A DNA stretch of 64,000 nt from Squalus acanthias (Eukaryota). Below are positions 4,395 to 50,523 of this stretch, in pieces; the first letter of the stretch is position 1, and each line of letters starts with the position of its first letter. Location of the stretch: positions 66,466,001 through 66,530,000 of the forward strand of contig CM059432.1 in NCBI GenBank assembly GCA_030390025.1, written 5' to 3'. The position numbers were made by a program, and so were the translations under genes. The notes below the pieces were generated by a model. It was given only the letters and a program-made list of their open reading frames with translations. It did no database searches and was not told where the DNA came from.

Positions 4395-6450
4395 GGGCTA
4401 GAAATTCGGTATAGCCCAGGAATGGGCGGTGTCAGTAGAAAAGTTGGAGAATTAGCGCCAGGCGCAAAAGCTTTAGACTGCACGAAAAATTTGTGCTCAC
4501 TGCTCAATAAAATGATTGGAATCCTAAATCAAGTCTTAAAACCCAAGCTCATTGGCATTACACTTGAAGGGTGGACCAATATCGGGTGCTCTCTAATTGC
4601 AACTTATCATTGCCGCAGGCCTTTTGCACAACTTAAAGGGGAGGTTCATTGATGCTGCAGCACCTCATTCTCAGCATTGCTGGCTGTGCAGCTGCCTCAG
4701 CAAGTAGCAGCACATTAAGGAGAAGGAGCCGGAGGACTGAACCAGATTGCTCATGGCAGGTCCACGTCCCAGGGAGAGAGCCCGCAGATTCTCTGATGAA
4801 GCATTGGAGGCATTGTTTTTTGCTGTGGAGAGATGGAGTGTGGTGCACTACCCGGCAAGTGAGAGGAGGCCCTCGCCACAAGTCTTCCACACCATGTGAA
4901 AGGAGGAAGCGCAGCATGTCTCGGGCAGCACTGTGGTCCCCAGGACCCACACACAGTGCTGGAAGAAATTTAACGACCTCACTCGGGTGGTCAGGGTGAG
5001 TGAATGCTTCAACAAATGCTACATATCACCATCTGTACCACAATCTTCAAACACTGCCCAAAGCACCACACCCCCAGCACTCACCCACCAACAATCACTA
5101 ACTACCAACATTCACACCCACATCTCACACCTTGCACACAATGATAGTTATTTAACAATGGCAGGCACATCACCCAAACACATTGCTCCACACTCACTCA
5201 CACACTTTCATTTCTCTTGCAGGCTAAGATGACGCACAACAGGAGGGAGTAGGAGTGCACAGGCGGGGGACAAGCTGACACTAAACCACTGTCTGCGCTG
5301 GAGAATCAAGTGCTGCAAATTCATTGGGTGCCAGGTGGTGGGCACTGTGGCCACCGGCGACATTGACACCCTTGGGGAGAACAACGGTATGTTCATCACT
5401 ACTCCTTCTTCTCACATCCCACTTCCCCCTCACCCCACAAGCATTTCGCAGTTTCCAGCTAATCATGCTGTATGCATGCCTTTCTCCATTCCTGCCCCCT
5501 CCCCTCACCTTATGCCTTTATGCTTTCAGATAATCAGCAAGCACCTGAGCAGCCTGCCCCTGAAGGCACCGCAGAGAGTGAGGCGGGAGAAGAGGAGGAG
5601 GAAGGACTCATCGCGTCACTGCATCTCTCACCCGCAGACACCAGCTCAGATACTGGCACTACGCATTCTTTAGAGGCTAGCATAGTAGCAGGATCTGCAC
5701 AGGGTGAGGCACTGGGGACGAGTGGGCTGCAGCAAGGCCAGGGTAGGTCGGGGGCCAGCTCCCTGGAGGGCGAGTTCGCGCGCGAGTTCTGCTGCACATG
5801 ACTCAGATGAGGGCCTCGAAGGGGAGGTGTTTAGAAGAAGGGTGATGCACATGGAGATGACAGATGCAATGGCAAGGGTGCCCGAGAGCCTCTCGGCAAT
5901 GGTAAGGAGCATGGAGGAGTCCACTTCCAACATTGAACAAGGCTCTGTGCACACCATGGAGCCCATCATTTCCAGTCTGCAAAGGATAGTAGACTCCCAG
6001 AGAGACCATGGCGTCCCAGACCTGATGTCACATATGATGGGCGATCCAGCAGCTTCCATTGCAGCACAGGCGGAAGCAACGCATCGTCTTAGTGCTGTAA
6101 TGGAGTCTATGCTTGCGGGCATCCAATCTCAGACTGCTCTCATGCAGTCTCAGCTCGATGCCACGCAAGCTCTGACTGCTGCCATCGTGGCTGGGTCTAC
6201 CACCATCGATCGGGGTTTTCACATGTTGCAGCAGGCCAGCAATCTGTGCTCCCGGGGGAGTGGCAGTCGGTTAGTGGAGCAAGAACCTGCTGTCCTCGCT
6301 CAGGATGACAGCATTCCTGCTCCCACCACTGCCACTCCACCTTTGCCCTTCTCACTGCCTGTCATCTAGCCAACCCAGACTACTGCTGCTCATGCTGAGG
6401 TGGTGCAGTCTACAGCCAGGCCTTCCAGGTCCAGAGGTGGTTGAGGACAA
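4395..6450 (+). mobile_element. Harbinger element, Myb/SANT half (3' truncated)
   Basis: Starts GGGCTAGAAATTCGGTAT, homologous to the end at 52354, and contains the spliced Myb/SANT gene. Confidence 0.8.
4760..6450 (+). pseudogene. Harbinger Myb/SANT-like DNA-binding protein, 3 exons, decayed
   Basis: RRFSDEALEAL...RTHTQCWKKFNDLTRVVR, GT-AG introns 4996-5222 and 5387-5529, then an acidic linker and a Met-rich heptad region (ORF 5704-6369). Confidence 0.8.
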
Positions 6451-7189: not shown

Positions 7190-9042
7190 CTACGATTGTG
7201 TCATTTTTCTTTTCCACTTGCTTCTACAAGGTGCAACCCCTGTGGATTCAGCAAAGGTAGAGGTAGGCTGCTCACTTCCCTGCTCTGACTGCTTAGACAC
7301 TTTTGGTGGTCGTCCTCTGGGTTTTGGAGCCTGTGAGGGCCCTGCCAAAGACTGCTCCTCCTGCAACTGTGCAGGGGCAGACTCGGCCATCGGGATCCGA
7401 GGCAGCATGTGGGGCTCTGACTGAGGGGGAGGCAATGGGGGAGAACAGGGAGCGCTTTGAGCAGAGCCCTCACTTCCTCTCACCATTATCCCTCTCATGG
7501 GCCAGCCATACTTCTCTGCTAGCAAGGATCTAGCACCTTGCTGCACACCAATGGGATGACGAACGTTCAATTCTACATTGGTATCCCTCCTAGAGATGAC
7601 TGCAATCAGAGTCTGCAAGCTGTTGTTCACAGCAAGCATACACTCCTTTGACTGGCGCATTAGCTGCTCCATGCAGGTGGCCATCCTTTCCATGGAGCAG
7701 CACATCGTCGCCATAGCCTGCAACATGGTGCTGCTCATGTTAGAGATGGACTCCTCCATTCTCTGTACAATTGTGCACATCGCAGCTGGAAAAGCTGCCA
7801 GAGCCTCGCGCATTTGCTGCTTCTCCTCCAGGATCAATCGCCTAGTTGACGGCCCCTGAGGTTTAGCATCTGCATCCATCTGAGCAGAGCTTGGAGTGTC
7901 CTATGCCCTCCGGCAAGGACTCTCCACTGCTGTCCCTGTCTCTACCATTTGCTCTTGCTCACTTGTGATGTGTGAGACACCAGGTGACAACACTACTCTA
8001 TGTCTCACAGGACCCACTGACATGCACGTATCTGCACTGGTGCTGGGTGCGCCTGGGTCTGGTGATGCTGCACCCTCAGAGACTGGAGCTTCCTCTGAGG
8101 AGTTGTCTTCCTCCTCTGGCTAGACAGTGGTGGGGGAGTTTGATGGACATATGGAAGAGTAAAGACATGAATTAGAACTCTTATGATAACAATGTTTCAA
8201 GTTACCATTATGCACATCATGATATTTCACTGGCTGCTGACATCAAGTCACCATGAGTGACGGTTGTATGCCATGTGGCTGTATGATATTTAATTCTGTC
8301 ACCAGGTTGCTGGGAGGTTCCCCTCTCTCCATCTCCCACCGCCAGCAGCTCTGCCACTCCGCTTAATTCCAGCACCACCTCCTCTGCTGGCAACAATGTA
8401 GTCTAAATTGGAGGGCCACCTCCGGTTCTCTGTCTCTCCCTGTTGTTCTGCGCTCTCTTCTCCTGCAAGCAGGTAAAGAAGAAAACTTTGAGTGAGAGTG
8501 CTGGATTGAGTGTAAGGGATGGATGGGTTATATCTGTAGAGGGTGACTATGAGGGAGAGGCGTGACATTGCCAAATGGCCTCCTTCTGTGGCGTTACTTT
8601 CTATGATTGCATTAGGCTGAGGGTGAGTGTCAGTGGTGGTTAGTCAGATGGGGATGTGAGTAGGTGCATAGACAGTGAGGGATGGGCGCACCTGCAAGGT
8701 AGGTTGGTGTGAGGAGTGGGAGTAGGCTTGGGAAGGCAGAGTGATGAGGTTGAGGTGACACACACATCAGGATGTATTTGAATGTGGCATTGTACTGACC
8801 TTTCCTGCCCTCGTGAGGTTATTAAATCTCTTCCTACACTGCATCCAGGAGCGGCTCACAACACCCCTGCTGCTCACTTCATGGGCGATCTCCAGCCATG
8901 CCCTCTTTGTTTCACTGGCTGGCCTCTTCCTGCCGTCACCAGGGAAGAGGATCTCCTTCTGTGCTCTCACTTCCTGGAGCAGGATGTTCAGGGAGGAATC
9001 AGAAAACCTGGGCGCAGCCTTCTGGCGCTGAGACTGCATCAT
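7190..9042 (-). pseudogene. Harbinger Myb/SANT-like gene, 3 exons (approx. 9042-8800, 8462-8303, 8148-7190)
   Basis: APRFSDSSLNILLQEV...WLEIAHEVSSRGVVSRSWMQCRKRFNNL. Donor and acceptor sites are visible; exon 3 has a heptad region and PRGRPPK. Confidence 0.88.
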
Positions 9043-18519: not shown

Positions 18520-19214
18520 GGAAACAAACAAATTCTTCCATGACAATATATTATTTTGGCAAAATTTTATATGACAAATTATGAAATTACTGGCCCAGAA
18601 ATCCGATGCGACGGAAAACAACTGGTGTTACCGTGGGGTGAGGTTAACTCCCGCCCGTAAAAAGAGCGCAGGCAGCTCCTTTATTTTGGTGCTGCCTGCT
18701 GATTTAAATGATCGGCGCACAGAACCTGCCATGTAACGTGTTGTTTCAGGCAGTAGTCTCAGCAGGAGACCCAATGTAACGTGGCTGTAGCATCCCTGGA
18801 GCAAGGCAGCGTTGTCTTAAAGCTAGCCTGTCATTTTAGAAAGCAGTCTCGAGCCCTTAAAGGGGAACTACCTTCTAAAATAAAAAAATAAAAATCATTT
18901 TAAAATAGGCAGTATTTAGCTTATTAGAGCTCAAATGCCTTCTGGAAATTTTTTTTTTAAGTAATTCGAAAATGGCAGTCTCAGCTCTTAAAGATGAACT
19001 GCCTCCTGCATGTAAAAAAATGGTAAAAGTGCTTCAGCACTAACCCAAATGGTTCAACAAGCCAGGGAAAGGGCACCCAGAGTCTTGCACACAGCTCTCC
19101 AGCTTGGTGCAGGGGGTCAACAATGCAAGAGAGGTCCTCTACCCACAGGGACCAGATCACTGATGTCACCATTGCCAGCAGTGTCACCCCCATGACCTGG
19201 CTCCAGTGCCCAAA

Positions 19215-19957
19215 GAAGTTTCATGCTAACATAAAAGGGAATCCAAAAGTCTTCTATAAGCATATAAATAGTAAACAGGTAGTAAGAGGAGGGGTGGGGC
19301 TGATTAGGGACCAAAATGCGGACCTACGCATGGAGGCAGAGGGCATGGCTGAGGTACTAAATGAATATTTTGCATCTGTCTGTACCAAGGGAGAAGATGC
19401 TGCCAAAGGCATAGTGAAAGAGGAGATAGTTGAGATGCTGGATGGGATAAGGAGGAGGTACTAGAAAGGCTGGCCGTACTTAAAGTAGATAAGTCACCAG
19501 GACCGGATGGGATGCATCCTAGGATGCTGAGGACAGTAAAGGCAGAAATTGCGGAGGTACTGGTGCCAGAGGACTGGAGAATTGCAAATGTTACACCCTT
19601 GTTAAAAAAAGGGTGTAAAGATAAACCCAGTAACTACAGGCCAGTCAGTTTAACCTCGGTAGTGGGGAAGCTTTAGAAACGATAATCCGGGACAAAATTA
19701 ACAGTCACTTGGACCAGTATGGATTAATTAAGGAAAGCCAACACGAATTTGTTAAAGGCAAATCGTGTTTAACTAACTTGATTGAGTTTTTTGATGAGGT
19801 AACAGAGAGGGTTGATGAGGGCAATGTGGTTGACGTGGTGTGCATGGACTTCCAAAAGGCATTTGATAAAGTGCCACATACTAGGCTTGCCAGCAAAGTT
19901 GAAGCCCATGGAATAAAAGGGACAGTGGCAGCATGGACACGAAATTGGCTAAGTGAC
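19215..19957 (+). mobile_element. CR1 LINE ORF2 fragment, 3' end lost at the ERV LTR junction
   Basis: NPKVFYKHIN...KSPGPDGMHP...SCLTNLIEFFDEVT...DFQKAFDKVPH. Confidence 0.92.
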
Positions 19958-20508
19958 TTACAAATCAACATGACAGGTAACGATCATGGTTCCATCGAGT
20001 CTGGATCGGTTCCCTCATCCTTTTGAGATGTTAATATCAAAATTGTTGCTGGAGTAAAACCCATTCACCAACCTTTCAGAATGCAGATAAGCCCGGAACT
20101 TTTCCCATCAAAACACCTTTGTGTGATAATGGACTATTCACTGACCCAGGATGGAGAAGTGATCAAATCAAGTACTCTATAGATTTGCAGAAACAGACAA
20201 GATTAAGATGGTACAATCAAAGTGTGGGGGGGGGGAGGTGGTGGTCAATCAATTGTCATGGGTATGATCTTTGTATTATAAAAAGGGTGCGTTTAGGGAC
20301 AAACTTCGGCAACTTGCAAGGGAACTGCAGACAGATTTGATCACCCGTACAGATGGAAACATACTCCTCTGAGTGGTCGCGGGGGTGAGTGGTGTTTGAA
20401 ATTAAAGAGAGTTAAAGGGAATAGCGTATGTAAATACTATTTGCAGTTAAAGGGAACAGTGCATTGACGTTTATATGCTATCTTTAGTACATAAACAGTT
20501 AAAAGAAT

Positions 20509-20926
20509 CTGGACTTAATATCGAGTTCAACAATTTTAGATCATAACCTCAGCTCCAATCACATTCATATTTTATTTTTTCCACCCTTTTATTTGCCCCC
20601 CCCCACCTTTTTTTTTTCCTCCTAGAAGCTGGCAGCTGTCCTTCATTCTGCCAGTGGATTTCACACTTCTTTCAGCCTTAATCTGTCACATTAACACCAC
20701 CTCTAGCCTTGCATATCTCTTAATGTCTCTTAATGTCTCTTCATCTCCCCCTTTGTTCTTTTATCCCCTCCCCCTTTTCCCAGCTTTACTCTGGCCTTAA
20801 ATCTATTTGATTTCCGGCTCTTCACAGTTCTGACGAAAGGTCATCGACCTGAAACGTTAACTCTCTTTCTCTCTCCACGGATGCTGCCTGGCCTGCTGAG
20901 TTTTTCCAGCGTTTTCTGTTGTTATT
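20509..20926 (+). mobile_element. 5'-truncated Penelope-like element inserted in the 5' LTR
   Basis: Matches 56096-56513. 10-bp TSD TTAAAAGAAT (20499-20508 / 20927-20936). Absent from the 3' LTR. Confidence 0.92.
20826..20862 (+). ncRNA. Minimal type I hammerhead ribozyme motif
   Basis: AGTT-CTGACGA-A-AGGTC(atc)GACCT-GAAACGTT-AACT. Confidence 0.85.
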
Positions 20927-21042
20927 TTAAAAGAATACTGAGTTGTACTGAGTTGTGAGCCTTGACCATTTTACCCCACCCAGACGATTCTGTAATTAGA
21001 GTATAAGAGGGAAGGTGCGGGTTCACCTACCTACAGATTTAG

Positions 21043-21060
21043 TGGCTCCCGAACAGTGAC
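21043..21060 (+). promoter_or_regulatory. Primer binding site, tRNA-Lys(UUU)-type
   Basis: TGGCTCCCGAACAGTGAC matches the Lys3 PBS TGGCGCCCGAACAGGGAC at 16 of 18 positions. Confidence 0.88.
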
Positions 21061-21074
21061 CTGATAGGGGAAAA

Positions 21075-24000
21075 ATGGAAGATAGGGTAGAGCAGTATTT
21101 GGGTAAGAAATTACCTTTGAAAGAGGGATGGGTATGAGTCAACGCGGCAGCATCCGATCCTCTAAAAGAAGCTGAGGAATGGGAGGAAACTCCCATGGCC
21201 AAGAGAAATCCAAAATGGGTACGCCCTGTGTGGTTGTTAGCATATAGGCAAAAACACAACAGTTAGTGCAGTCGCATCATCGATATGAAGAAAGGTTGCA
21301 GGAAAAGGATGCAGTAATAGCGAGATTGACAAAAGTGACACCGGTGGCTAGGGGAGACCCGGTAGTGTTGAATTATGATGAAGCTTATACTCCCTCACAA
21401 TTAAGGGAAGCAGCAAGGGATTTAGGAACCCTCGGACGGGGAGGAGATGTGGAAGGGCATTTTTTGCGCATAGAAACGATGGCTGCGATGCAGGGTTTCG
21501 ACGAATCTGAGAAAAAGAGAGCTGTTTGCTTTTTAGTCTGGCTGGGTTACCCCAAGACACCAAGTATGCCCAACCCGCGGTAACTTGGGACAATACTAAG
21601 TGACACGTTAGAGAAGCTTGCGGGTACTGAAGGGATGATCCATTTAAGATCATGGCACACTCTATGCAGGGGAAGGAGGAACACCCAGAAGCGTTTGCTA
21701 GCAGATTGTGACCTGTTTATAATGAAACACAAGGAAGAGGGTTGGATCGGAATCAACTGGCAGGAGACAGTCTCCACCGATGGATAAGAGCTCTTATAGC
21801 TCGCACGGAACCCGTTACTAATACAGCTATGTCAGGGTTTGATTTGGGAGACCCAGGCATGACAGAAGCTCGAGTGTTGAGGAAGTTGATTATATTTTGG
21901 GAGGATAAACAGGACAAGCAGGATAGGAACAAGGAATAAGGGAGGAAGAAAGGAAAAGTACAGAAGATGAAACCCCAGGTAACACCAGACCCGGCCCCTA
22001 AACAGGACCTGGGGAAACAGTGGAGATATGAAAGAGCAAAGCCAAGGGGGCCACCTGTGGGAAAAAAACAAGTGTAGGTGACCAACCAGGTAGAATCATA
22101 GATTCATACGGCACAGAAGGAGGCCATTCGGCCCATCGAGTCCATGCCGGCTCTCTGTAGAGCAATCCCATTCCCCCGCTCTATCCCCGTAGCCCTGCAA
22201 GTTTATTTCCCTCAAGTGCCTATCCAGTCTCCCCTTGAAAACATTGAGTGTCTCCGCCTCCACCACTTCCATTGGCAGCGAGTTCCAGGTCCTCACCACT
22301 CGCTGCGTAAAAAAGATTTTCCTCACATCCCCCCGTAATCAAAACCTTAAATCTGTGTCCCCTAGTCCTTGTACCATCAATTAGTGGGAACAGCCTTTCC
22401 CCGTCTAGCCTATCCAAACCCGTCATAATCTTGTACACCTCTATCAAATCACCCTTCAACCTCCTTTGCTCTAAGGAAAACAAATCCAGCTTCTGCAACC
22501 TGTCCTTGTAGCTAAGATCCCCCATCCCCAGAACCATTCTGGTAAATCTCCTCTGCACCCTCTCAAGGGCCTTCACATCCTTCCTAAAGTGTGGTGACCA
22601 GAACTGGACGCAATACTCCAGTTGTGGCCTAACCGGCGCTTTATAAAGGTTCAGCATAACTTCTCTACTTTTGTACTCAATACCTCTATTTATGAAGCCC
22701 AAGGTCCCATATGTTTTGCTAACCACTCTCTCAATATGTCTTGCCACCTTCAGGAATCTATGCACATTAACTCCCAGGTCCATCTGTCCCTGCACACTCT
22801 TTAAAACTGTGCCATTAAGTGTATAATGCCTCTCCCTGTTCCTTCTGCCAAAATGCATCACCTCACACTTCTCTGTATTAAATTCGACATGCCACTTGTC
22901 TGCCCATTCTGCTAGCCTTTCTATGTCTTGTTGCAGTCGATTAGTATCATCCTCACTATCTGCCACCGCCCCAAGTTTGGTGTCATCGGCAAATTTAGAA
23001 ATTCTACTCTGTATTCCAATATCCAGGTCATTTATATATATCAAAAAAAACAGTGGCCTCAGCACTGACCCTTGGGGAACACCACTGTCTACCATCCTCC
23101 AGTCTGAAAAACAGCCATTTAGCACAACTCGCTGTTTTCTGTCCTTAAGCCAATTCCTTCTCCAAGCTGCCACTGACCCACCTATTCCATGAGCCTCAAT
23201 TTTGTTAACCAGCCTTCTATGTGGTACTTTGTCAAACGCCTTCCGAAAATCCATGTCGACAACATCCATTGCATTCCCTTCATCAATCCTCTCTGTTACT
23301 TCATCAAAAAATTCAATTAGATTAGTCAAACACGATCTGCCTTTTACAAATCCGTGTTGGCTCTTCTTAATTAGCTTAAACCTCTCCAAGTGCCCGTTAA
23401 TTTTTTCCTTGATTATTGTTTCTAAAACTTTACCCACCACTGATGTTAAACTGTAGTTACTAGGATTGTCCTTGCACCCTTTCTTGAACAATGGTGTCAC
23501 ATTTGCCACTTTCCAATCCTCAGACACCTCTCCCGCATCTAGGGAAGATTAGAAATTTATGGCAAGCCCTTCTGCTATCTCCTCTCCCAGTTCCCTTAGC
23601 AACTTGGGATGCAAGCCATCTGGACCAGGCGACTTGTCCACTCTAAGCATACCCAAACTTTCTAGTACATCCTGTCTATCAATTTTCACCCCTTCCATTG
23701 CTTCTACCTTTTCCACTTCTACTGATATTTTGTCAGCATTCACCTCCTTAGTAAACACCGATACAAAGTACTCATTGAGTATTCTAGCCTTGCCCTGCGC
23801 CTTTAAGCATATATCACCTTCTTTGTCTCCTGCCTCTTACTACCCACTTACTGTTTACATGCCGGTATTTTTGGGTTCCCTTTTATGTTAACCACCATTC
23901 TACTCTCATATTCTCTCTTTGCCAATCTTATTTTCATCTTCACTTCCCCTCTCAATTTATTGTATTTGTTCTGGTGCTCCCTTGAAGAATTCACCTAACA

Positions 24001-25151
24001 TGCACCATACACCCTCTTTTTTAATTTCATCATCTTCTCTATCTCCCTCATCATCCAAGGATCCCTTGCTTTGGTTCCCTTACCCTTCCCTCTTGTTGGA
24101 ATGTACCTAGCCTGTACTTGGAACATCTCCTCCTCAAAGATCACCCATTGTTCCGTTACAGTTTTTCCTGTCAGTCTTTGGTTCCATTTTACCTTGGTTT
24201 GATCTTTTCACATCCCATTGAAGTTAGCCCTATTCCAGTTTAGAAGTTATTCTCCAGATTGTTCCTTGCTCCTCTCCATTGCTAATCTAAATCTTATGAT
24301 ACGATGATCACTCGTACCCAAGTGTTCTCCCACAGACACTTGGTCGACCTGGCCCACCTCATTCCCCAGCACCAGATCCAGCAATGCCTCCTTCCTAGTT
24401 GGGCCAAGAACATATTGGTCAAGGAAATTCTCCTGAACACATTTCAGAAATTCCTCCCCCTCCTTTCCCTTTACCCTAGCATTATCCCAATCGATATTTG
24501 GGTAATTAAAGTCCCCCAATATCACCACTCTATAGCTCTTGCATATCTCTGCGATTTCCCTGCAGATTTGCTCCTCTACCTCCCTCTCACTATTTGGAGG
24601 CCTATAGAATACCCCAAATAGCGTAATCATACCCTTTTTGCTCCTCAACTCTAACCAAATGGATTCTGTCGTTGTCCCCTCAAGAACATCCTCTTCCTTA
24701 ATCAGCACTGCCACCCCACCTCCCTTTTTTCCTTCCCTATCTTTTCTGAACACCTTGTACCCTTGAATTTTAAGTGCCCAGTCCTCACTGTTTTTAAACC
24801 ACGTTTCCGTTATTGCTACAACATCATATTACCACATGGCCAATTGTGCTTGTAGCTCACCAACCTTATTCACCACACTTTGTGCGTTTACGTACATGCA
24901 TTCTAAACCTATTTAGCAGAGAATACTATAACTGTGGGAAACTTGGCCATATAGCATGGGAGTGCTATGCGCCAAGGAATAGGGAAGGACCGAGAAAGAA
25001 TCCTGGGGGTGGTGGGTCTCAGGATGCAATAGTGTGACTGGCCCATGCCTTGGAGAAGGTAGTAAGCCAGACTGGAGGTAAATGTCATTCCTCCAAGGGA
25101 GGAGACGGAGGGGAACCTAAGCTGGAACCCTCCACACCCTCCGAGCAATGA
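21075..25151 (+). pseudogene. gag: gag, split by a CR1 insertion
   Basis: ATG 14 nt after the PBS, then capsid-like helical segments. After the CR1 comes the knuckle (Y)YNCGKLGHIAWEC (CX2CX4HX4C with first C changed to Y). Ends EPSTPSEQ-TGA. Confidence 0.75.
22095..24905 (-). mobile_element. CR1 LINE (endonuclease + RT ORF2, 3' tail) inserted in gag
   Basis: APE motif VVILGDFNYPNIDW; RT motifs GVPQGSVL and KFADDTKL. Same subfamily as 50521-51963. Confidence 0.95.
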
Positions 25152-27660
25152 AGGGGTCGTAACAGCCAGCTATCATATTGTGCCCACTCAGGTATGACAG
25201 CCACAGAAGACTGACCATGGATTTAATGGTAGAAGGAAAGTAAGGGGAATACCTGGCAGATACAGGGGCGTCGCATACCGTGGTCCACGCGAAGGATCCG
25301 CGGAGGTCCAATTGGTCTAGCGGTGAACCCTACGTTTTGGGAGAATTTACGGGAAATACGCTGCCTGGCATGGTATCAAAACCTCTTCGCATACAAGTGG
25401 GGCCACTTGGAATAAAGTGGGTACGCATATTAATGAATTGGGACAAGGCGAGAGGAGTATTGGGATCAGATTGTATGGAAGCAAATGGCTTAGTGATAGA
25501 TCTAGTTAATCACTGTTTATGGAAGGGCAGTGAAGGACAGTGTGTTCTGCTGGATGGACAAGGAAAGGAGAGTGTGGTTTCGGGAAAGGGAGCATATGAC
25601 TGGGAGGCACTAGTGAAAAAAGCCCTGAGTGGAGTAAAGCCATTAGAGAGCAGGAGAAGGGGGCGTTTGCCCAACACAAACACGACTGCGGGAGAATACC
25701 AGGAGTAGAGGTGGTAGTAGAGGGAGAACCTATGAAAACCCCGCAGAGGCAATATAATTTCCCCAAAGAAGCAGAGAGGGATTTAGAGGTAGTGGTAAAG
25801 TCCCTCGTGGATCAAGGGGTCTTAAGAACTCTGGCGATACACGTAAATTCACCGATTTGGCCTGTTAAGAAACCAGATGGATCATGGAGGACAATGATTG
25901 ATTATAGGGTATCAAATAAGAACATTCCTGCATGTGCCCCAACGGTCGCTGCTGTGACAGATTTGATTGGCTGTACACCAAGCTCCGTGGAAGGATACAC
26001 TGTGTTGGATATTTCGAATGGGTTTTGGTCTATTCCAATGAGAAAAGAAGATCAGTACAAATTTGTCTTCACCTTTAAAGGGCAGCAGTACACGTGGACA
26101 TGTCTGCCACAAGGGTTTCATAATAGCCCTTCACTATTCCATCAGCAAATGGCTAAGTGTTTTGAAGTGTTTTCCGGCAGGGACAAGCTGATCCAGTATG
26201 TGGATGACTTGTTACTATTCACAAAGACTCCTGAGGAACATATGGTGTTGCTGAAGGAGTTGTTGCAGCTCCTAATGCGATGCGGGTTGAAGGTAAACCC
26301 AAAAAAGGCTCAGATAGGGCAAAAGGAGGTACAACTTTTGGGGCTCACACTGCGACTGGGAGAGAGAGGCATAGATGAGGCAAAAAGGAAAGCGGTACAA
26401 GAGTTACCGATACCGGAGGATGTTCCGGCTTTAAGATCGTTTTTAGAACTGACGGGATATTGCCGTGAGTTTATAGAAAATTATGCAGGTATAGCTTGAC
26501 CTTTGTACACATTAACACGGAAGTCAGCCAAATGGGAGTGGACAGAGGAATGTGAGAGGGCTTTTCACACACTTAAGGAAAAGCTGCAAACAGCCCCAGC
26601 TTTGGGAGTGATAGACCCTACGCAGAATTTCTGGCTAGAGTGCGCAGCTATGGAAGCTAGTTTAAGTGCAGTACTGTTACAATCAGCCCATGGGAAACTT
26701 AGACCAGTAGCGTACGCTTTTCAGACATTAACTCCGGTAGAAATGGCGTACTCATCATGTGAGATGTTAGCTACCTAGTGGGCAGTTGAGCACTTTGCTG
26801 TATTTATGGGAGCCGCCACGGTAACCCTGAGAACGGGACATAATCCAACAAGATTATTGGTAGATGGGAGAATTAAAGAAGGGACGGTGTCCAGCCCTAC
26901 TATTAGTAGATGGAGTGTGTTACTGGGGTCATATGATCTGAAGGTGGAACCATTGAACCACCCGACCCTCGCATTAAATATGGAGTACACGGGAAAACCA
27001 CATCAATGTACAGTAGAGGGGATGTGGGAAATAGAAGGAGGATTTAAGAAGGGCATTCACCCGCAGGGGAGAGACATCTTTGTAGATGGATCCAGTTATA
27101 TGGAAAAGGGAGAAAGGCAGATGGGATGTGGAATTTGGGATCCAAGTAATGAGATAGCCGTGTCACTGAAATTACCGAATCATCTGAGTGCACAGCAAGT
27201 GGAGTTGGCTGCTGTTGCACATGTAGTAACCCACCCAACTGAGTTCCCACCACATTATACTGTCTGTTCGGATTTTATGTTTGTTTGTAATTCACTGACG
27301 GAGTTTCTAACGATTTGGGGAAAGCGAGGATTTAGATCAGCAGACAGGAAACCACTCTTAAATGGCCCTCTGCTGAAGATGGTGCTGCAGGTGATCAGGA
27401 ACAATGAAGGGAAATATGACTGTTTTATACACAAAGTGAAGGCTCACTCTAAGACAGAGCTGAGATGGGAAGGAAACGAGAATTCAGACATGCAAAGCAA
27501 AGAAAGGTACTGTAGGAGGAGTGCCTTAGGATCCCATGGAAGGAATGGGAGAAATAGCAATGATGGCGGCGGTTGAGCCAGTGAGAGTGAGTGATCTTAT
27601 GGAAGTGCAAAAGGCAGGTCCAGTACTCAGGGAGGTGTTAGGCAAACTAGAAAAGGGGGA

Positions 27661-27742
27661 AATAACAACAGAAAACGCTGGAAAAACTCAGCAGGCCAGG
27701 CAGCATCCGTAGAGAGAGAAAGAGAGTTGACGTTTCAGGTCG
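27661..27742 (-). mobile_element. 82-bp 3' tip of a Penelope-like element inserted in pol
   Basis: Reverse complement of about 20844-20926. 12-bp TSD AGAAAAGGGGGA (27649-27660 / 27743-27754). Confidence 0.9.
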
Positions 27743-28955
27743 AGAAAAGGGGGAGCCTGTTGAGGGACCCGATGGAAGACCTGAAGTGGGAATAAAAGAA
27801 GGGATGTTGTTTAAGAATGATAAATGGGTGGTGCCTACAGCCCAGAGGGAGGATTTTCTCTGATTAGTACATGGGGGACCGGGAGCAGGGAATCCTAGTG
27901 TAGAGGAAACGTGGAGAAGAGTAAATGCAGTGGGATGGTGGCCTCATCAGAGAGAGGATGTGGAGGATTTTTGTCATAATTGTCTGATTTGTGCAGCCAA
28001 TAATCCAGACCCACATAGGAGAAAGGTACCTTTGGGGTGCACCCAAAGATCAGAAGGGCCTTGGCAGTGTGTGCAGATAGATTTTATAGGACCTCTCCCA
28101 ATATCCAGCAGAGGGAATAAGTACTGTTCAGTTCTGGTAGATAACTTTACCAAATGGGTTGAGGCGTTTCCATGTAAGGCAGCTACTGTCCTAACTACAG
28201 CTAAAATCCTGGTGAAGGAGGCATTCTCTAGATGGGGACTACCATGGATCATGGAATCAGATCAGGGAAGTCACTTTACTGGACAGGTACTGCAAGCGAA
28301 TTTGAAACTGCTGGCTATTGAAGGGAAATGACATGTAAGCCATAATCCGCAGTCCTCAGGAATTGTAGAGCGCATGAATAGAACCCTAAAAGAAAGACTT
28401 AGGAAAGAACTGGATGAACAAAAGAAGAAATGGGATGAAGTGTTACCACTGGTGTTGATAAATATTAGGGGGAGTACCTCTCATACAACAGGGTATTCAC
28501 CTCATGAGTTGATGACAGGGAGACCTATGAGAACACCGTTACACTTATTGGTACCTGTTCTGACTGAAAGACAGGAGAATGAAGTAACTCAGGACAGATT
28601 TGTGAGAGACCTGAAGAAACAGTTGGAGGAGCTCTGTAGACAAGCTGCAGGGAATATTGGCAGAAAACATCAAACCAATAAAATTAATTTAGAACCACAC
28701 AAACCACAGGAATGAGACATAGGGGATCAGGTGATGGTGAGGAATTATGCTCGGGTAGGAGTGTTTGAACCGCTGTATAAGGGACCGTATAATATTGTGG
28801 AAAAAGCTCGCCCACTGGTATATATGGTACAACTACCCAAGAAGGTAAAATGGTTCCACATCAATCAAATGAAACTGTACAAACCCCAAAGGAAACAACA
28901 GAGAGCGGAAGGGACTGTTATAAGTATGATAAAATGTGGACCATGGAAGATGAGT

Positions 28956-29330
28956 CATCGAGTCATACAGTCATAACGGCACAGAAGGAGGCCATTCGGC
29001 CCATTGAGTCCATGCCGACTCTCTGCAGAGCAATCCAGTCAGTCCCATTCCCCCGCTCTATCCCCATAGCCCTGCAAGTTTATTTCCCTCAAGTGCCTAT
29101 CCAGTCTCCCCTTGAAAACATTGAGTGTGTCTGCTTCCACCACTTCCGTCGGCAGCGAGTTCCAGGTCCTCACCACTCGCTGCGTAAAAAGTTTTTCCTC
29201 GCATTCCCCCTGTATCTCTTGCCCAAAACCTTAAACCTGTGTCCCCTAATCCTTGTACCATCAACTAGTGGTTTTCCCTGTCTAGCCTATCCAAACCCAT
29301 CATAATCTTGTACACCTCTATCAAATCACA
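28956..29330 (-). mobile_element. CR1 3' end fragment inserted in the integrase C-terminus
   Basis: Near-identical to 22100-22450 and 52084-52350. Confidence 0.9.
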
Positions 29331-29625
29331 TCAAATCAAATCAAATCCTCTATCAATGAGGGTGTACTTTGTTGATTCATCCACAGAGACAGCCACAAGG
29401 GCCTCCAGTATCAGTCCCAGCCCCTCGAAGAATGGCAACAGGAGGTGCCAACAACAGAAAGGGAGAGAGCCCAAAGAGAGCTAGCCCTAGAGGCCCGAAA
29501 TATAACTTGAGGAGTCATAAATGCCAAGGGCATGCATGTAAATTCTGTAAATGAATAAGTTACTTATTTAACCAATCGGATCTGCGTAGCCTGGATAGTG
29601 TAGTAGGGGCCAACGCAAAGCGAAC

Positions 29626-29647
29626 CTTTGTTTATTTTATTTTACAG
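29626..29647 (+). promoter_or_regulatory. Probable env splice acceptor
   Basis: T-rich tract TTTGTTTATTTTATTTTACAG ending 24 nt before the env ATG. Confidence 0.7.
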
Positions 29648-29671
29648 GGAAAAAGGGAAAAGGAGGAAGAG

Positions 29672-32630
29672 ATGAAGAGTGTGTTAGCGCTTCTCTTGGG
29701 AATCATGTGGTACGAAAGTATGACCTCCGAAGTAGATTGGTGCTCATCGATGGTCACCTACCTGGGGAAAATGGCCGAAGCTGAAACATACTCTAAGGAA
29801 CTGTATTTTGCATGTCCTTTTGACAGTAACAACAGCTCTGAAAAAGGGGCAACAGGATGCAAGGGTAATTTAGCTTTGGTAAAGGTGCTAGAGGTAAAGG
29901 AAGGGAGACGAATCTGTGAAAAACGTAGCTTTGAGTCACCAGTGGATAGTAACAAGTGCACAATACCTAAATTACGCAATGCCACAGACATAGTACTGTT
30001 CACGCCTGCACCGGGAAAACCTAGTGTGGAAGGGTTAAATGCAGAAGCGGCTGTATCTGTAAGATTGTACGGGGGAAAAATTGGGTTCATTTGCGCCTCT
30101 CATTAAACGGGGCACAAATCCCCTAGCGCCTCCCGCAGCGGTAGCTGGTAGCGCCCAGTAGCGCTGCGCCACCGACGATAACATTATCGATGTGCACAGC
30201 GCCCCGCTTGCACCCCAGTCGCAAACTTCCCTTGTGCCCCTGACCTATCGCCGGACGATATGTCCGACAGGGTCAGGGGGCGCTTTTGCAGCGGCGGCGG
30301 CGGTAGTTAAAAGGGCAGGTGTCGGGTGGCCACCTTTTTTTGGCCGACTGCCAACACTTGCCCCCTTTCCCTTTTTTTTTCAGGGTGCCGGCCGCGCTCG
30401 CTCAGCCCGGCACTCCATTGCAGGCCTCCTCCCTTTAATCAGGGGAGGAGGCCTGCAATGACACGGTGCTATGTGCCTACGCGCGTGCCGTTGTTGCACG
30501 TAGCGCCGCGATCTTCAGTAGTAGCGCCCCAAGAAGGAGGTAGAGCACTTCCAGTAGCGCCCCACCTCCTGCTTGGGGTGCCACCACTGAATTTCCGGCA
30601 GAGGGGCGCTAACTTTTTCGGGACGCTAAAATTAGCGGCCTGTTGATGTTAGCGCCCCAAAAGGGGCGCCACCCAATTTTTCCCCCTACGAAACCAATCA
30701 ATCTGTGAGTGACGGTATAGTCTACTGTTGGCCGAATTGGAATAAGCAATACGAGGGCAAATATTATTGTGAGCGTAGTGCCTTTGGGAATAATGTAGCA
30801 GGAAAGAGTGCGAGTAAAGAAGTAAACCATCAAACTATAATAATGTATCATTTAAAAACAACACCAAAGAAAACACCTGATTTAAAACAACAAAAATCTC
30901 CAGAGTGTCCAAAGCAAATACCAGGACCCAAAAATGGCCTGGTATTGGTCCCAACCAATCCGATTTTATATCAAAACGTTCTTTATCAGATAATTCCAGT
31001 TATTTTGAATTTGACCGAGGCAAGATGGCCAAGCTGGTGTAAAAGAGACACCCGAAAGCCGATAGATAAAATGCGGCAACAAGTAGTTAAAGATTTTTGG
31101 GGGGACACTGGAGATTCATGGGAATCCAAAGATTTGATAAATCATTAGGAAGAAGTGGAGAAGTAGCCGACTCCACCTACTATAGTGGTCACGACCCAAA
31201 GCCCACAAGGAAAGAGGAAGAGAAGGAGTTTGATTAATGATATAGTGACGGGAGTCAACACAGCAGGAATGGCTTCTAATAGATTAGATTTAGTAACAAT
31301 GAATCGTGAATTAAGGAAAGCTAAGCAGCAAATCAAAAGTATCTTACAGCAAAGCAATAATTTAATGCAACAGCAACTATACGAGGACCTGATAATGACT
31401 CTCCATTTAACAAAACTTACTAATCCTATTTTAGATACTGCTAGAAAGGTGGATCAGCTCATCAAGGAAGATCGAAATGCTAGTACAGAGGCAGCTCAGA
31501 ATTACATGTGCATGATGTGTGGGAATTAGTTGGTAGAACAAACCCGCCATCATTTAGAGAAATTAGAGGAGGGATATGTTTCTGATTGGATTAGCAATGA
31601 ACACTTAACACAATTGACAGATTATGAAATTTCACCTAATGTGAGTATATGTAAATTAAGAAGGTCGATTAAGGCTCAAGTAGTTTATCACAAATGTGAT
31701 AGTCCTGCTAATGATACAGTGGTAGGAATAGTGTTGAAATTCCCTCTCATAACTCCAAAACATCAGGGATATCCCCTGTTTAGAGTAGAAAACATTGGAC
31801 ATGTATTGTATGGGACACAAATAGTAACGGAGCACCGAGACAATGCTCCTTATGTAGCCTGTAACGCCTCCGCGAGTGCAGCGGATAGGTGGATTCCCAT
31901 AGACCTGGTGGGATGTCAGCAAGTGAGAGAGACAGTAATTTATCCCTGTAGATTACATGACCATAAAGGATCAGCATGTGGATTCTCTGGGAAGAGGGCA
32001 AATTGTACCATGTAATCTATATCAGGAAGACGTGGAGTTGTTAACTCTGCTTATAGAGGGAATGGAATGATTTGTGTAACCACAACTGTAAAATCTTTTA
32101 TTTATGGAAATAATTTGATATGCCCAGTTATACAACCAACCTTTTGTATTAAGCCTGTTCATGTGGTATTGATAGGACATAGGATTCTACAACCCTTACA
32201 CCTAGGAAAGGAAACTGGTATTGATGTATCAGACCCACTCTCGAATTTGAACATGGAAGAATTTGTTAGTAAGTTTGGCTATGATATAGATTTACTTGAA
32301 CCCGAAGTTTAGGCTAAAATAACTAAATTACTGAATGATCTTCATGTAACCCAGCATGTATTGTGGAAATTAAAGCAAAGACAAAGTGAAGTGGGGAAAG
32401 ACATGCAAAATATCAAAATTATCCCATGGTGGAAACAATTATGGAATTGGGGAACTACAGTTGAGATAAATCCTTGGATAAGAATCGTGTCTCATGTATT
32501 GGTCATAATCCAATTGATCATTGTGATCTATTTGCAATGTCCGTCGATGGCATAGAAAAGACGGCAGAAGAAGAGACAGCAAAAGTTAATGCGTGAGGTC
32601 TTGTTTCAGCAAGAACAGAAGTTGGTTTAA
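29672..32630 (+). pseudogene. env: env: class I fusion glycoprotein, 779 codons after MITE removal, six nonsense codons
   Basis: Signal peptide MKSVLALLLGIMW, furin site RKRR (31215-31226), fusion peptide SLINDIVTGVNTAG, HR1, Cys-rich region, HR2, Trp-rich PWWKQLWNW, TM helix, basic tail. Confidence 0.9.
30071..30686. mobile_element. Harbinger MITE inserted in env
   Basis: Perfect 16-bp TIR GGGGGAAAAATTGGGT and TSD TAC. Excision restores the env frame (VRLY/ETNQSVSDG). Confidence 0.95.
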
Positions 32631-32670
32631 AAGTGACTGATTCCCTGATGAGTCAGTACATCAGTCACTT

Positions 32671-32679
32671 GGGGGTGGA
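32671..32679 (+). promoter_or_regulatory. Polypurine tract
   Basis: GGGGGTGGA, 4 nt before the TGTAG that starts the 3' LTR. Confidence 0.65.
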
Positions 32680-32683
32680 CTCC

Positions 32684-33713
32684 TGTAGCCAGTCCTGCAG
32701 CAAGAATGCACTTAACTTAAAGTAAACCGACATTAAAGGGTTAAGCGGCTGTACTGTACAGGAAGTTTTGTAAATTGGCCAATCATAAGAAATTGACCAA
32801 GCTTCATATCCCAGCATGCCTCGAAGAACCAACGGGTCTTTTAAATGAACTTTTTAAACAAGCTGTGAGCTGAACGGAATGCAGGAGGAAATTATTCATA
32901 CAGAGACACAGACATGATTGATTGACTTTATGAATATGCGAACCAAGGAAGTAGCTGGAGTAATCAGGCCACACAATGACATGTGTTTGTTTAAATTTAA
33001 CTGACTGCCCTGTCCATTGGTCAGGCTGTTAACAAGACTTACAAATCAACACAACAGGTAACAATCATGGTTCCACCAAGTCTGGATCGGTTCCCTCATC
33101 CTTTGGAGATGTTAATATCAAAATTGTTGCTGGAGTAAAACCCATTCGCCAACCTTTCAGAATGCAGATAAGCCCGGAACTTTTCCCCATCAAAACACCT
33201 TTGTGTGATAATGGACTATTCACTGACCCAGGATGGAGAAGTGATCAAATCAAGTACTCTATAGATTTGCAGAAACAGACAAGATTAAGATGGTATAATC
33301 AAAGTGTGTGGGGGGGGAGGGGTGGTGGGGGGTTGCGTCAATCAATTGTCATGGGTATGATCTTTGTATTATAAAAAGGGTGCGTTTAGGGACAAACTTC
33401 GACAACTTGCAAGGGAACTGCAGACAGATTTGATCACCCGTACAGATGGAAACACACTCCTCTGAGTGATCGCGGGGGTGAGTGGTGTTTGAAATTAAAG
33501 AGAGTTAAAGGGAACAGTGTATGTAAGTACTATTTGAAGTTAAAGGGAACAGTGCATTGATGTTTGTATGTTATCCTTAGTACAAGAAACAGTTAAAAGA
33601 ATACTGAGTTGTACTGAGTTGTGAGCCTTGACTATTTTACCCCACCCGGACGGTTTCAGGTTAGATTCTGGAATTAGAGTATAAGAGGGAAGGTGCGGGT
33701 TCGCCTACCGACA
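32684..33713 (+). repeat. ERV 3' LTR (about 1.03 kb)
   Basis: TGTAG...GACA termini; TATAAAA near 33370; matches the 5' LTR from 33036 onward. Confidence 0.9.
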
Positions 33714-34178
33714 GTAGTGAGATATTGAAATTTTAACGTTCTAGAAAGCCCTTGCAAGTTATTTGATTGACTGCAGATTCTATTACGCGTACCGTTAAAA
33801 TGTTTAATTTTTAACAAACTTTAAAAGACAGTACAGAGACTGCCAACCACACTGCACTGGTGAGACCATTCTCCACACCTCCCCCCAGGCAGACCCACCA
33901 GTGTAGGCTGGGGAACCTGCCAACATTATTCAACTGACCCTGACCCCAGAAAATAAATCTAGGCAAAGGGCACTTCTTTGTGGCGGACAAAGTTTTGCCA
34001 ATCTGCACTTCCTCTGACATCATGGGCGAGTGGATCCAAGCTATATTCTTAGAACCAGAGAGTACAGATATTTTCTAGTTTTGCATTTCTGCGGTGAGAT
34101 ACCGATTGCGCTGTTGCACCCGTTCTTATTGTTTCTCACAATAAACCAGTTGCACATGTCCTTTAGTTTGGATACAAC

Positions 34179-37232: not shown

Positions 37233-39947
37233 TGTAAGGGGTGACCTGCGGCTCTGTGCTTAGCCTGGGTGCTAGTGCGGGGTTAGACCTTGTTGCCTGT
37301 TCTGGTCTCCAGCCAGCCTGGTAACACTAGACACCTGTGAGTGGTTCGACCCACTCGCCCTTACGGTTCTGACACTGGACTTAGGTGCGAAAGCAATAAT
37401 GCAGAGAAAGACTCAAGTAGACCCGGTTGAATAGTGTGAAATGGAAAATCTTTATTGCATATTATTCAAGATTACGAGATACATGTCATAAGCACAGATT
37501 AATGACAGTACAATCTTACACACCGTTATGAAACTACTTTTAAGGAAACGAGGAGCGCATGACACATCGTAAAAGGGGACACACATTATAATTATCCTTA
37601 AAACTTAAACCCTCCCCTATCAATACCTGTCCTAATCTAGATTTGTAGGATCGAGACTCATGCTCACCACTCGTGATAACTCGGAGAATTCCGAAACTCT
37701 GCTCGGATGTTTTTACCGCAGCACCTGACTATCCACGTGTTGATCAGGGGTCTCTGTACCCCACTTGTTTACTCGTTTCTGCTCCGGCTAGCAGGCTGGA
37801 CCATCTGCTGTCATGAAGATCTGTGTTGTCCTCGGAGTTCCGATACTACTCAAAAAAGAGTCTTCCTGTGCCCTCACACCGGTTCGATAAAGCTCAAAGA
37901 AGGGTCTTCCTAGGCAAGGAAGTGTTTATTCGACTTACAGGCGCGGTCGGGGCTTACTGACCGTGGCGATGCGTATTGTCGTCTTCTTCTCTTCTCATCT
38001 CATCTCATCTCATCTCCTCTCGGGCCTTCGGTTCCAACACCGTTTACCGACTTCTCGGATGGTGCGCCCGTTTCAAGGCCTCACAGCCCAGTTCTCCACA
38101 GATCTTCGCGGCAAGCCACAAGGTTGATCCTAGCGGATCAGAGTCCAGAGCCGTCAGGCAAGAGAATAAAAGTTCAGCAGCCTTCCAGCGAGTCAAAGCA
38201 GCAAGCGCAAAAGGAAGAAGAGAGCGATGGACAGTTGTACCTCACAGTTATAGTGCTGTAATTCCTCTTTTCCCGCCCAATCTTAATGTCTATCTTTTGT
38301 CAGGGTTTTGGCGCTCAAACTTCTTGTATAGGGTGATCTCAGTCTTTAATGGGTTTCGGTGATACTTGTAACTGTCTGAGTACCCGTTAATATTTCTCCC
38401 ATTGTGGAACCGGCTAGTAGTCTCCCTGGAGGGGTTTTGGGGCTTCCAAATGCTTACTGTAAGTACCCGCAAACGGCTCTCTCATCGTAGAGTCGTGGGG
38501 ATTTTGCATATTAATGTCTTTGGATGGGTCCTTGATTGCTCAGTACAATAGCCCTTATTTGCACCCAGGAGACCGATTCCAGTATTCATGTTTAAAATGC
38601 AAACCCATCATGTCTTGTCATTTATCTCAAATGTGCTGAGTCCTGTACGATCTTGCACAAATGTTTATTGGAACATAAGAACATAAGAACATAAGAAATA
38701 GGAGCAGGAGTAGGCCAATCGGCCCCTCGAGCCTGCTCCGCCATTCAATAAGATCATGGCTGATCTGATCCTAACCACCAATCTACTATCTATCACAGAA
38801 CCATCTCCTGCATCTAACAGAATTGCACACACGAAATAGGAGCAGAATCAGGCTACACAGTCCCTGGGCCCGCTCCACTACCCACAGGGCCATGACCGAT
38901 CCGAACCTAGACTCATGTCCAAATTCCTGCCCGCTCCCCGTAACCCTTAATGCCCTTTACTTCTAGGAAACTGTCTATTTCTGTTTTAAATTTAATTAAT
39001 GTTGTAGCTTCTACAGCTTTTTGTGGCAGCATATTCCATGGACCTACCACCCTCTGAGTGAAGTAGTTCCTCCTCATCTCAGTTTTGAAAGAGCAGCCCC
39101 TTATTCTAAGACTATGTCCCCTAGTTCTCGTCTCACCCGTCATCGGGAACATCCTCCCCGCATCCACCCGATCCAACCCCTTCACAATCTTATATGTTTC
39201 AATAAGATCGCCTCTCATTCTTCTGAACTCCAATGAGTAGAGTCCCAATCTACCCAACCTCTCCTCATATGACCACCCCCTCATCCCCGGGATTAACCGA
39301 ATGAACCTTTTTTGCACTGCCTCGAGAGCAAGGATGTCTTTCCTTAAGTAAGGACACCAAAACTGTATGCAGTATTCCAGGTGCGGTCTCACCAATACCT
39401 TGTACAACTGAAGCAATACCTCCCTATTTTTATATTCTATCCCCCTAGCAATGAAAGCCAACATTCCATTTGCCTTCTTAATCACTTGCTGCACCTGCAT
39501 ACTAACCTTTTGAGTTTCGTGCACCAGGACCCCCAGATCCCTTTGCACTTCAGTACTCTCCAGTTTCTTGCCATTAAGATAATAAATTGCTCTAGGATTT
39601 TTCCTGCCAAAGTGCATCACCTCACACTTTCCAGTGTTGTATTCCATCTGCCAAATCTCTGCCCACTTACTTAGCCTGTCTATGTCCCCTTGCAGGTTTT
39701 TTATGTCCTCCTCATTCACTACTTTCCCTCCCATCTTTGTATCATCTGCAAATTTTGATATGTTACACCATCTTGTCTGCCCACTGAAAGTCTAGAACTT
39801 TCTGCCACGAGGTGTGGCGGCCATTTTGCAGGCTGTTTGTGTCCGTTTTGAAACCTGACAGCATTCTGCTGAAATAAAAGCTGTTTATACGAAACTTTAT
39901 GTCTCCTTCTTATTTTATAAAATCGCGATAATTTTGCGAATTCTACA
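37233..39947 (-). mobile_element. Solo LTR, family A, nested in LTR-B
   Basis: Inverted homologue of 16883-18519; TSD ACTG (37229-37232 / 39948-39951). Confidence 0.9.
38675..39764 (-). mobile_element. 5'-truncated CR1 nested in LTR-A
   Basis: Open ORF2 C-terminus 38913-39734 (LVRPHLEYCIQFW); (ATAAGAAC)n tail. Confidence 0.95.
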
Positions 39948-48234: not shown

Positions 48235-49762
48235 GACCTTTCGTCAGAACTGGAAAAAAGTTAGAGATGTAACAGATTTTAACCAGATGCAGAGGCAGGG
48301 AAAGAGGGGAGGGGAGGAAAGAACAAAAGGGACGGTCTGTGATAGAGTGGAAGGCAGGAGAGATTAAATGCTGCAAATGGGAATGGCAGAATCATCTACA
48401 GCAGCCGTCTGAAAAAATAGGGGCAGAGGATATGCTTTGAAATTGTTGAACTCGATGTTGAGTCCAGAAGGCTGTAAAGTGCCTAAACGAAAGATGAGAT
48501 GCTGTTCCTCGAGCTTACGTTGAGCTTCATTGGAACAGTGTAAGAGGCCGAGGACAGAGAGGTCAGAGTGGGAGTGGAGCGGAGAATTAAAGTGACAGGC
48601 GACCGGAAGCTCAGGCTCACCCTTATGGACTGAGTGGAGGTGTTCCGCAAAGCGGTCACCCAATCTGCGTTTGGTCTCCCCAATGTAGAGGATGGTGAGT
48701 AGTGAATACAGTATACTAAATTGCAAGAAGTACAAGTAAATCGCTGTTGCACCTGGAAGGAGTGTTTGGGGCCCTGGACAGTGGAAAGTGAGGAAGTAAA
48801 AGGGCAGGTGACACATCTCCTGCGCTTGCATAGGAAGGTGCCGGGTGAAGGGGAGGGACTGGGGGGTGATTGAGGAGTGGACCAGGGTGTTGCGGAGGGA
48901 GCGGGCAATTTGTAATGCTGAAAGGGGAGGTGAGGGGAAGATGTGTTTGGTGGTGGGATCACGCTGGAGGTGGCGGAAATGGCGCAGGATGATCCGTTGA
49001 ATGTGGAGGCTGGTGGGGTGGAAGGTGAGGACAAGGGGAACCCTATCGTGGTTCTGGGAGGGAGGGGAAGGGGTGAGAGCAGAAGTGTGGGAAATGGAAC
49101 GGACGCGGTCGAGGGCCGTGTCAACCACGGTAGAGGGGAATCCTCAGTTGAGGAAAAAGGAAGACATGTCAGAAGCACTAGTATGGAAGGTGGCATTGTC
49201 AGAACAGATGCGGCGGAGACAGAGAAACTGGGAGAATGGAATAGAGGCCTTACAGGAAACGGGGTGGGAGGAAGTGTAGTCAAGGTAGCTGTGGGAGTCA
49301 GTGGGCTTATAGTGGATGTTTGTCGATAGCCTATCCCCAGAAATGGAGACAGAGAAGTCGAGGAAGGGAAGTGAAGAGTCAGAGATGGTCCATGTGAAGG
49401 TGAGGAAAGGGTAGAAATTGGAAACAAAGTGAATGAAATTTTCTAGTTCAGGGCGAGAGCAGGAAACGGCACCGATACAGCCATCAAAAAGAGGTTAGGG
49501 AGGGAACCTGATTCGGACTGGAACAAAGACTGTTCCACATATCCCACGAAAAGGCAGGCATAGCTAGGGCCCATGCAGGTTCCCATAGCAATTTGGAGTA
49601 AGTGAATGGAGTCAAAGGAGAAGTTGTTCAATGAGAGAACAAGTTCAGCCAGGCGAAGGAGGGTGGTGGTGGATGGGGACTGGTTGGGCCTCTGTTCAAG
49701 GAAGAAGCGGAGCGCCCTCAGGCCGTCCTGGTAGGGGATGGAGGTGTAGAGGGATTGGACAT
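48235..49762 (-). mobile_element. Penelope-like element (RT + GIY-YIG), decayed
   Basis: AMGTCMGPSYACLFVGYVE and LYIGETKRRLGDRFAEH; homologous to 54796-56543. Confidence 0.93.
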
Positions 49763-50295: not shown

Positions 50296-50523
50296 CATTC
50301 AATAAGATCATGGCTGATCTTCTACCTGAACTCAACCTTCCTGGCCTATCCCCATATCCCTTGATTCCCTTAATATCCAAAAAACGTAATGGTGATATTT
50401 TACTTCCTTTTAATGCATCAATATTTTCTGGTGCACGATCTCAGCCTTGAATAAATTCAACGACTGAACATCCACAGCCCTCTGGGGTGGAGAATTCCAA
50501 AGATTCACAACCCTCTGAGTGAA
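50296..50523 (-). mobile_element. CR1 3' fragment, sister of 46760-47125
   Basis: Same CR1 segment with the same internal insert. Confidence 0.85.

Follow-up and report, generated by a model that had tools for sequence, protein, structure and literature searches.

A dead provirus of the shark Squalus acanthias with a canonical, most likely SnRV-like polymerase and a likely F-type envelope related to those of foamy viruses and lokiretroviruses

Retroviruses like the snakehead retrovirus (SnRV) are grouped as clade Huo, which according to the accessible part of Xu et al. (2018, PMC6001957) is found in all major vertebrate lineages. Such elements have been on record in the elephant shark since 2015, when CmiERV lineage I was reported to cluster with SnRV (Han, 2015, PMC4422223, in the text accessible), so both the lineage and the host class discussed here are already known. 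In the portions available of Wang & Han (PMC7947760), lokiretroviruses were detected in none of six chondrichthyan genomes, and separate origins were proposed for loki and canonical Env since the two showed no similarity. Independent acquisition of Env by lokiretroviruses and canonical retroviruses is also the preference expressed in what is accessible of PMC9040795. The foamy virus Env has its core in common with the F proteins of paramyxoviruses and pneumoviruses (Fernandez et al., 2024, PMC11468914), in a paper whose accessible sections mention neither lokiretroviruses nor SnRV.

The locus described here lies in a 64,000-nt stretch of Squalus acanthias DNA, called the window below. We read it with good confidence as a dead provirus that a canonical retrovirus left in the germline; this virus was most likely SnRV-like (clade Huo, class III) and carried a likely F-type env related to the foamy and loki Env. 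All the proviral parts listed in Table 1 are present, far above chance. The preliminary description had seen a near-complete provirus with the order LTR, PBS(Lys), gag with CCHC, protease, RT with YVDD, tether, second RNase H, IN with GPY, env, polypurine tract and LTR, and these parts are confirmed, those of gag and pol by Pfam and by the visible YVDD and GPY motifs. In unbroken frames, Pfam gives E-values of 2e-34 for RVT_1, 1e-19 for RT_RNaseH_2 (the tether) and 2e-16 for RNase_H, followed by the IN domains rve (5e-12), Integrase_H2C2 (3e-10) and the C-terminal SH3-type domain (4e-6), while the aspartyl protease is weak at 0.004. The zf-CCHC match (4e-4) reaches 20.7 bits against a cut-off of 20.8. 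The PBS resembles tRNA-Lys3, an assignment that we presume, and no tRNA genes were found in the window.

Table 1. Parts of the provirus and the repeats inserted in it, with coordinates in the 64,000-nt window
Feature	Position	Strand	Remarks
5' LTR	19955..21036	+	lacks first ~350 bp; ends CTACA; contains insertion 1
Insertion 1, SINE-like high-copy host repeat	20509..20926		10-bp flanking duplication
PBS	21044..21061	+	starts 7 nt past 5' LTR end
gag	21076..25037	+	start approximate; disrupted by frameshifts and insertion 2
Insertion 2, LINE with endonuclease and RT	22095..24913	-	2.8 kb; antisense, inside gag
CCHC knuckle in gag	~24927-24968	+	degenerate
Protease	25223..25621	+	DTGA motif; one stop within aligned stretch
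RT (YVDD), tether and second RNase H	25600..27576	+	single frame, two internal stops
Insertion 3, inverted 82-bp piece of insertion-1 repeat	27661..27742		12-bp flanking duplication; precedes IN
Integrase	27747..28955	+	zinc finger, DDE core, GPY; two internal stops
Insertion 4, copy of LINE 3' end repeat	28956..29355		after IN
env	29672..32630	+	split by insertion 5; six internal stops in downstream frame
Insertion 5, MITE-like, with terminal inverted repeats	30072..30686		615 bp, GC-rich (60%); within env
RKRR furin site of env	31215-31226	+
Polypurine-tract-like run	32671..32679 (about)	+	4 nt ahead of 3' LTR
3' LTR, complete	32684..33713	+	TGTAG ... GACA; ~1,030 bp

The LTR was at first thought to begin at 19955. 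The repeat pair behind that reading is real, but the repeat from 19955/33036 is only the 3' two-thirds of an LTR whose full length starts at 32684. Window 32684-33719 is matched by the complete 5' LTR of a sister copy, and most of the 40 scored genomic LTR matches begin aligning at 32684. Since the 5' LTR is truncated and adjoins a CR1-type LINE fragment, the target-site duplication of this copy is unreadable. The five insertions named in the preliminary description are evident by comparison with five sister copies, and contig depth agrees, being 10^4-10^6 on the insertions and about 10^2 on viral parts; each of the 30 bins of the region is covered by contigs, which come from four organisms in three studies. 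All five insertions are high-copy host repeats, and we take the LINE of insertion 2 to be of CR1 type. Divergence between the two LTRs (K2P 0.039 over 655 columns) corresponds to about 39 My at 0.5e-9 per site per year and 90 My at 2.2e-10, the rates assumed in the accessible parts of PMC10699275 and PMC4422223. The window copy was thus integrated roughly 40-90 My ago, depending on the rate. A single contig of another organism crosses the junction between the 3' LTR and its flank (window 33602-34174), a hint that the insertion may be shared between species (orthologous); in three other copies the alignment ends with the LTR.

In the 3.7-Gb genome of Squalus acanthias, the close family of the provirus has RT DNA that is mostly 88-96% identical, and a second family lies at about 69% RT DNA identity. 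Of 2,080 candidates in the RT DNA search, 40 were scored and gave 44 matches. For a piece of env, 150 of 5,839 candidates in the same genome were scored, giving 152 matches. The pol group is abundant and diverse there. At six sister-family loci the protease motif follows the gag stop in the same frame, and the other loci are frameshifted or cut. P0004 has no relative among viral contigs.

Four trees were built to place the polymerase: a FastTree of RT with 192 rows, seven short RT rows being left out; an IQ-TREE of RT plus tether with 56 rows under LG+G4; a quick IQ-TREE of RT plus tether under the C20 mixture; and an IQ-TREE of 88 rows. The references came from the loki, foamy, SnRV, gamma/epsilon and Gypsy groups, and neither class II (alpha/beta/lenti) nor Odin was among them. 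The lokiretroviruses were represented by sequences with the loki RT motif NSPAEFNIF (six proteins and two near-complete contigs), and the foamy references were feline foamy virus (FFV) and five further foamy genomes. An RT reference matched by eye to the SnRV RT in the Wang & Han alignment led to the SnRV genome. NSPAEFNIF occurs 56 times in the accessible part of the Wang & Han supplement, in which the window's PQGFHNSP does not occur.

In all four trees, the window RT falls within canonical Retroviridae, together with elements of sharks, frogs and coelacanth. In each of the three IQ-TREE runs, support for the branch separating Retroviridae from the 100%-supported loki clade is 98-99. Forcing the window family to join the lokiretroviruses is rejected by the AU test (p=0.016). 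The assignment to a loki-type lineage made in the preliminary description is therefore abandoned. The RT and IN trees that it had proposed as a check put the RT outside the class I, foamy, Gypsy and loki clades, while in the IN tree loki nests weakly among the window's group. Membership of Ty3/Gypsy (Metaviridae) was rejected as a second RNase H is present and the RT lies inside Retroviridae; a place among the gamma/epsilon viruses (class I) was rejected in the same way, with an RT outside class I and an env without ISD or CX6CC. The tether and second RNase H are indeed retroviral features that exclude Gypsy, but they are common to all retroviruses, loki and Odin, so they do not point to loki as had been supposed.

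A true lokiretrovirus, which would be the first from a cartilaginous fish, is an interpretation to which we give almost no credence. It draws on the presence of tether and RNase H, on the env matches set out below, and on the IN tree (seven rows left out), where loki sits with the window family in a 24-row group at support 81 and nests weakly among it (81-89). Against it, besides the four RT trees and the AU test, the window RT is only 34-38% identical to loki RTs, whereas one loki RT shows 60-82% identity to six others. When a loki RT probe was run on the shark's own genome, the best of the 150 scored of 16,609 candidates was 41% identical, and none of 24 loci from that list (22 distinct places) fell in loki. 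The PBS also differs, and the two loki references tested have no CCHC. Since the RT places the family outside loki, the loki host range is not extended, and the earlier remark that chondrichthyans seemed to be outside the reported range agrees with the published survey. The nesting of loki IN amid the SnRV-like group may reflect a shared ancestral IN or an exchange of IN, and it may explain why both groups carry 'NYNRIN-like' labels. The closest named Pol relatives are frog and coelacanth gene models called 'NYNRIN-like' or 'Gypsy integrase-like' (50-53% RT identity), names given automatically to ERV frames.

SnRV itself does not keep one position across the trees, and 'SnRV-like' is accordingly the most suitable name we have, for a grade more than for a proven clade. 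SnRV joins the clade of the window in the FastTree (0.92) and in the 88-row tree, where a 41-row clade that includes it has support 89 and the Retroviridae branch 99. In the 56-row LG+G4 and C20 trees it goes instead with the class I viruses (86-98); in the C20 tree, a 14-row clade of shark, frog and coelacanth elements without SnRV stands at 98, as does the branch between Retroviridae and loki. The IN tree and the RNase H tree, the latter with three rows left out, likewise keep SnRV apart from the window clade. The window family might accordingly be a separate deep lineage of sharks, frogs and coelacanth, merely lumped with SnRV and deserving its own name, and the failure of the shark env profile to detect SnRV Env fits this too. 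We consider it unlikely, though worth keeping in mind: SnRV joins with denser sampling, forcing it to do so costs only 4.3 lnL and is not rejected (AU p=0.39), and the published trees, as far as accessible, group the elephant-shark relative with SnRV (PMC4422223). Such a reading would alter the name and not the mechanism.

SnRV itself (PMC4977317 and PMC12193657, in the parts accessible) resembles the window family in its RT, which is 44% identical, in its CCHC gag, in a pol that continues the gag frame past the stop, and in an Env that is not of gamma type and whose TM ectodomain is long. SnRV differs in being complex, with a 3' ORF and accessory ORFs, and in having a long Env tail and a much longer SU. 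The zinc knuckle is found in SnRV and the shark families and is absent from the ORFs of at least 200 aa of two loki and six foamy references. The preliminary description had used it to set the element apart from foamy viruses; this holds for the six foamy references, but the knuckle is missing from the two loki references as well and present in SnRV.

The env product has a hydrophobic N-terminus, which by eye is a putative signal peptide, then about 310 aa ahead of the RKRR site, a TM ectodomain of about 400 aa, a membrane anchor and a short basic tail. Two related shark loci have 288 and 330 aa before cleavage. The gamma-type motifs CX6CC and ISD were looked for in env and are absent. A profile of 18 natural env pieces (A2), run with 882 decoys of which the best had E 0.42, finds the foamy TM in four of six cases (E 3e-6 to 2e-3) and the loki Env in both (3e-6 and 1e-5); a shallower profile built earlier behaved alike. 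With hhalign, env aligns to loki Env at 3e-4 to 5e-4 over ~225 columns, and its match to foamy TM is unstable, at 7e-5 in one run and 0.098 in another. The homology of env to foamy and loki TM is weak but above decoys. The relation to loki env implied in the preliminary description is upheld, and the F type that went with it is likely. Between the foamy and loki profiles no match emerges (hhalign E 0.15). The shark profile does not pick up SnRV Env either, with hhalign at E 0.13-0.25 and a profile of the F2 core at E 2.3, although some motifs of SnRV Env and the window env look alike by eye.

Direct searches of env against Pfam F (PF00523) and PDB sequences gave no match, with a loki control at E 0.002. 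Two homologue searches with env alignments found one protein among 6,787 candidates and none among 4,947 longer ones, respectively. This sole database relative is a protein of the sawshark Pristiophorus japonicus, which supports the cartilaginous-fish host proposed in the preliminary description. AlphaFold models of env are poor (pLDDT 35 and 41). Foldseek on the pLDDT-41 model places pneumovirus F at all of ranks 1-10, the foamy post-fusion Env at rank 16 and measles F at rank 17, by matches that are themselves weak (E 5e-3 or worse, TM 0.22, rmsd 27). VIA-align on the second model returns generic helices, with hMPV F at rank 41; in BFVD a torovirus spike (4e-4) and a fish paramyxovirus F (0.01) come up, mixed with numerous unrelated rows; and all ESM Atlas scores are under 0.9. 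The Foldseek matches are support in kind, and no proof, for an F-type env. Taken with the profile matches, the env product is likely an F-type (paramyxo/pneumovirus-F) fusion protein related to the foamy and loki Env.

The lokiretroviruses, in the accessible parts of PMC7947760 and PMC9040795, share with the window the tether and second RNase H, a weakly similar IN and an F-related Env with an RXKR site and detectable TM homology. They differ in RT clade, and their pre-cleavage Env measures 116 aa in two references against ~290-330 aa in the shark family, which has some 200 extra residues before the F2-like core. Some lokiretroviruses carry an smc accessory gene, and no additional ORF stood out in the provirus. 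The foamy viruses share the TM ectodomain homology, and the provirus could be imagined as a basal foamy-like ERV (clade Tu) that retained its zinc knuckle. The best PDB sequence match for Pol is a foamy RT (1e-64, with a gamma RT at 3e-63), Pfam Foamy_virus_ENV weakly matches one env piece (E 0.042), and forcing the window family with the foamy viruses is not rejected (AU p=0.099). We nevertheless find this highly improbable. No tree unites the family with FFV or with the elephant-shark foamy-like protein, foamy RT is 34% identical and stands apart in these trees, the window's gag has a CCHC knuckle, and relatives of the window copy continue pol in the gag frame past its stop. Nor is there the long leader peptide of foamy Env (568 aa before cleavage), and the gap of ~50 nt between env and LTR leaves no room for the accessory genes of foamy viruses.

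CmiERV lineage I is among the nearest known counterparts of the provirus. Both have a cartilaginous-fish host, a two-LTR provirus and a CCHC gag, and by eye the RT motifs of the window family (NSPIWPV.KPDGSW, PACAP, LDISNGFWSIP, LPQGFHNSP) recur in the elephant-shark element (PMC4422223, accessible part). Its PBS and LTR, compared by eye, are unlike those of the window's provirus, and its env, also by eye, is gamma-type, with an ISD motif and CX6CC. Because the elephant-shark relative has this gamma-type env, a single pol group appears to hold both envelope types, and at least one exchange of env has likely taken place inside the group. Gamma-type and non-gamma envelopes coexist in sharks.

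The literature searched, which lay outside most subscription journals and Repbase, did not contain an SnRV-like pol combined with an Env linking those of loki and foamy viruses. The window family would be a canonical, non-foamy lineage whose F-type Env connects the loki and foamy Env. F-type Env may be ancestral to lokiretroviruses and Retroviridae, with the gamma type a later replacement of the kind seen within the shark clade; we advance this tentatively, with slightly more doubt than belief. If true, it would overturn the preference for independent acquisition expressed in the available text of PMC9040795. With an Env profile that finds loki and foamy alike, this third lineage provides sequence material to test for a single origin of env, and the gamma-type env in the same pol group offers a datable case of envelope exchange. 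Both touch the open question of the source of retroviral env.

From general retroviral biology, the ancestor would have primed reverse transcription on a Lys tRNA. Gag-Pol was probably made by readthrough of the gag stop, several relatives having pol in the gag frame after it. Cell entry would have relied on a furin-cleaved F-type Env, whose additional N-terminal part of ~200 aa was probably receptor-binding. Infection of the germ line would then have given rise to a family of tens of LTR loci. The window copy has since lost part of its 5' LTR, gained five host repeats and become inert.

Several minor observations concern the same genome. The pol group of the provirus has at least five more ERV families there, several of which have the same non-gamma env type. 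A sister family (L017/L018, L021/L022, L025/L026) has a different PBS, a classical polypurine tract and an apparent 4-bp target-site duplication, and its LTR divergence of 0.033-0.046 indicates an age similar to that of the window copy. Two loci (L057 and L061) are class I-side ERVs with a classic gamma-type env (ISD and CX6CC). Env fragments of the window's family at 7002883, 7069923 and 7141593 of G000:C1 are spaced by ~70 kb and were possibly carried in a segmental duplication. In the window itself, CR1-type LINE fragments lie at 19027-19957, 38913-39791, 50557-51981 and 58348-59553, and the LINE inside gag shares about 92% identity with the fragment at ~50518-52350. RT and GIY-YIG-like motifs are visible by eye at 48364-49442 (-) and 54736-55422 (+), in fragments that we take to be Penelope-type retroelements. 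Finally, two open frames with coiled-coil-like composition, at 5689-6369 (+; 226 aa) and 7190-7900 (-; 236 aa), are possibly transposon-derived.
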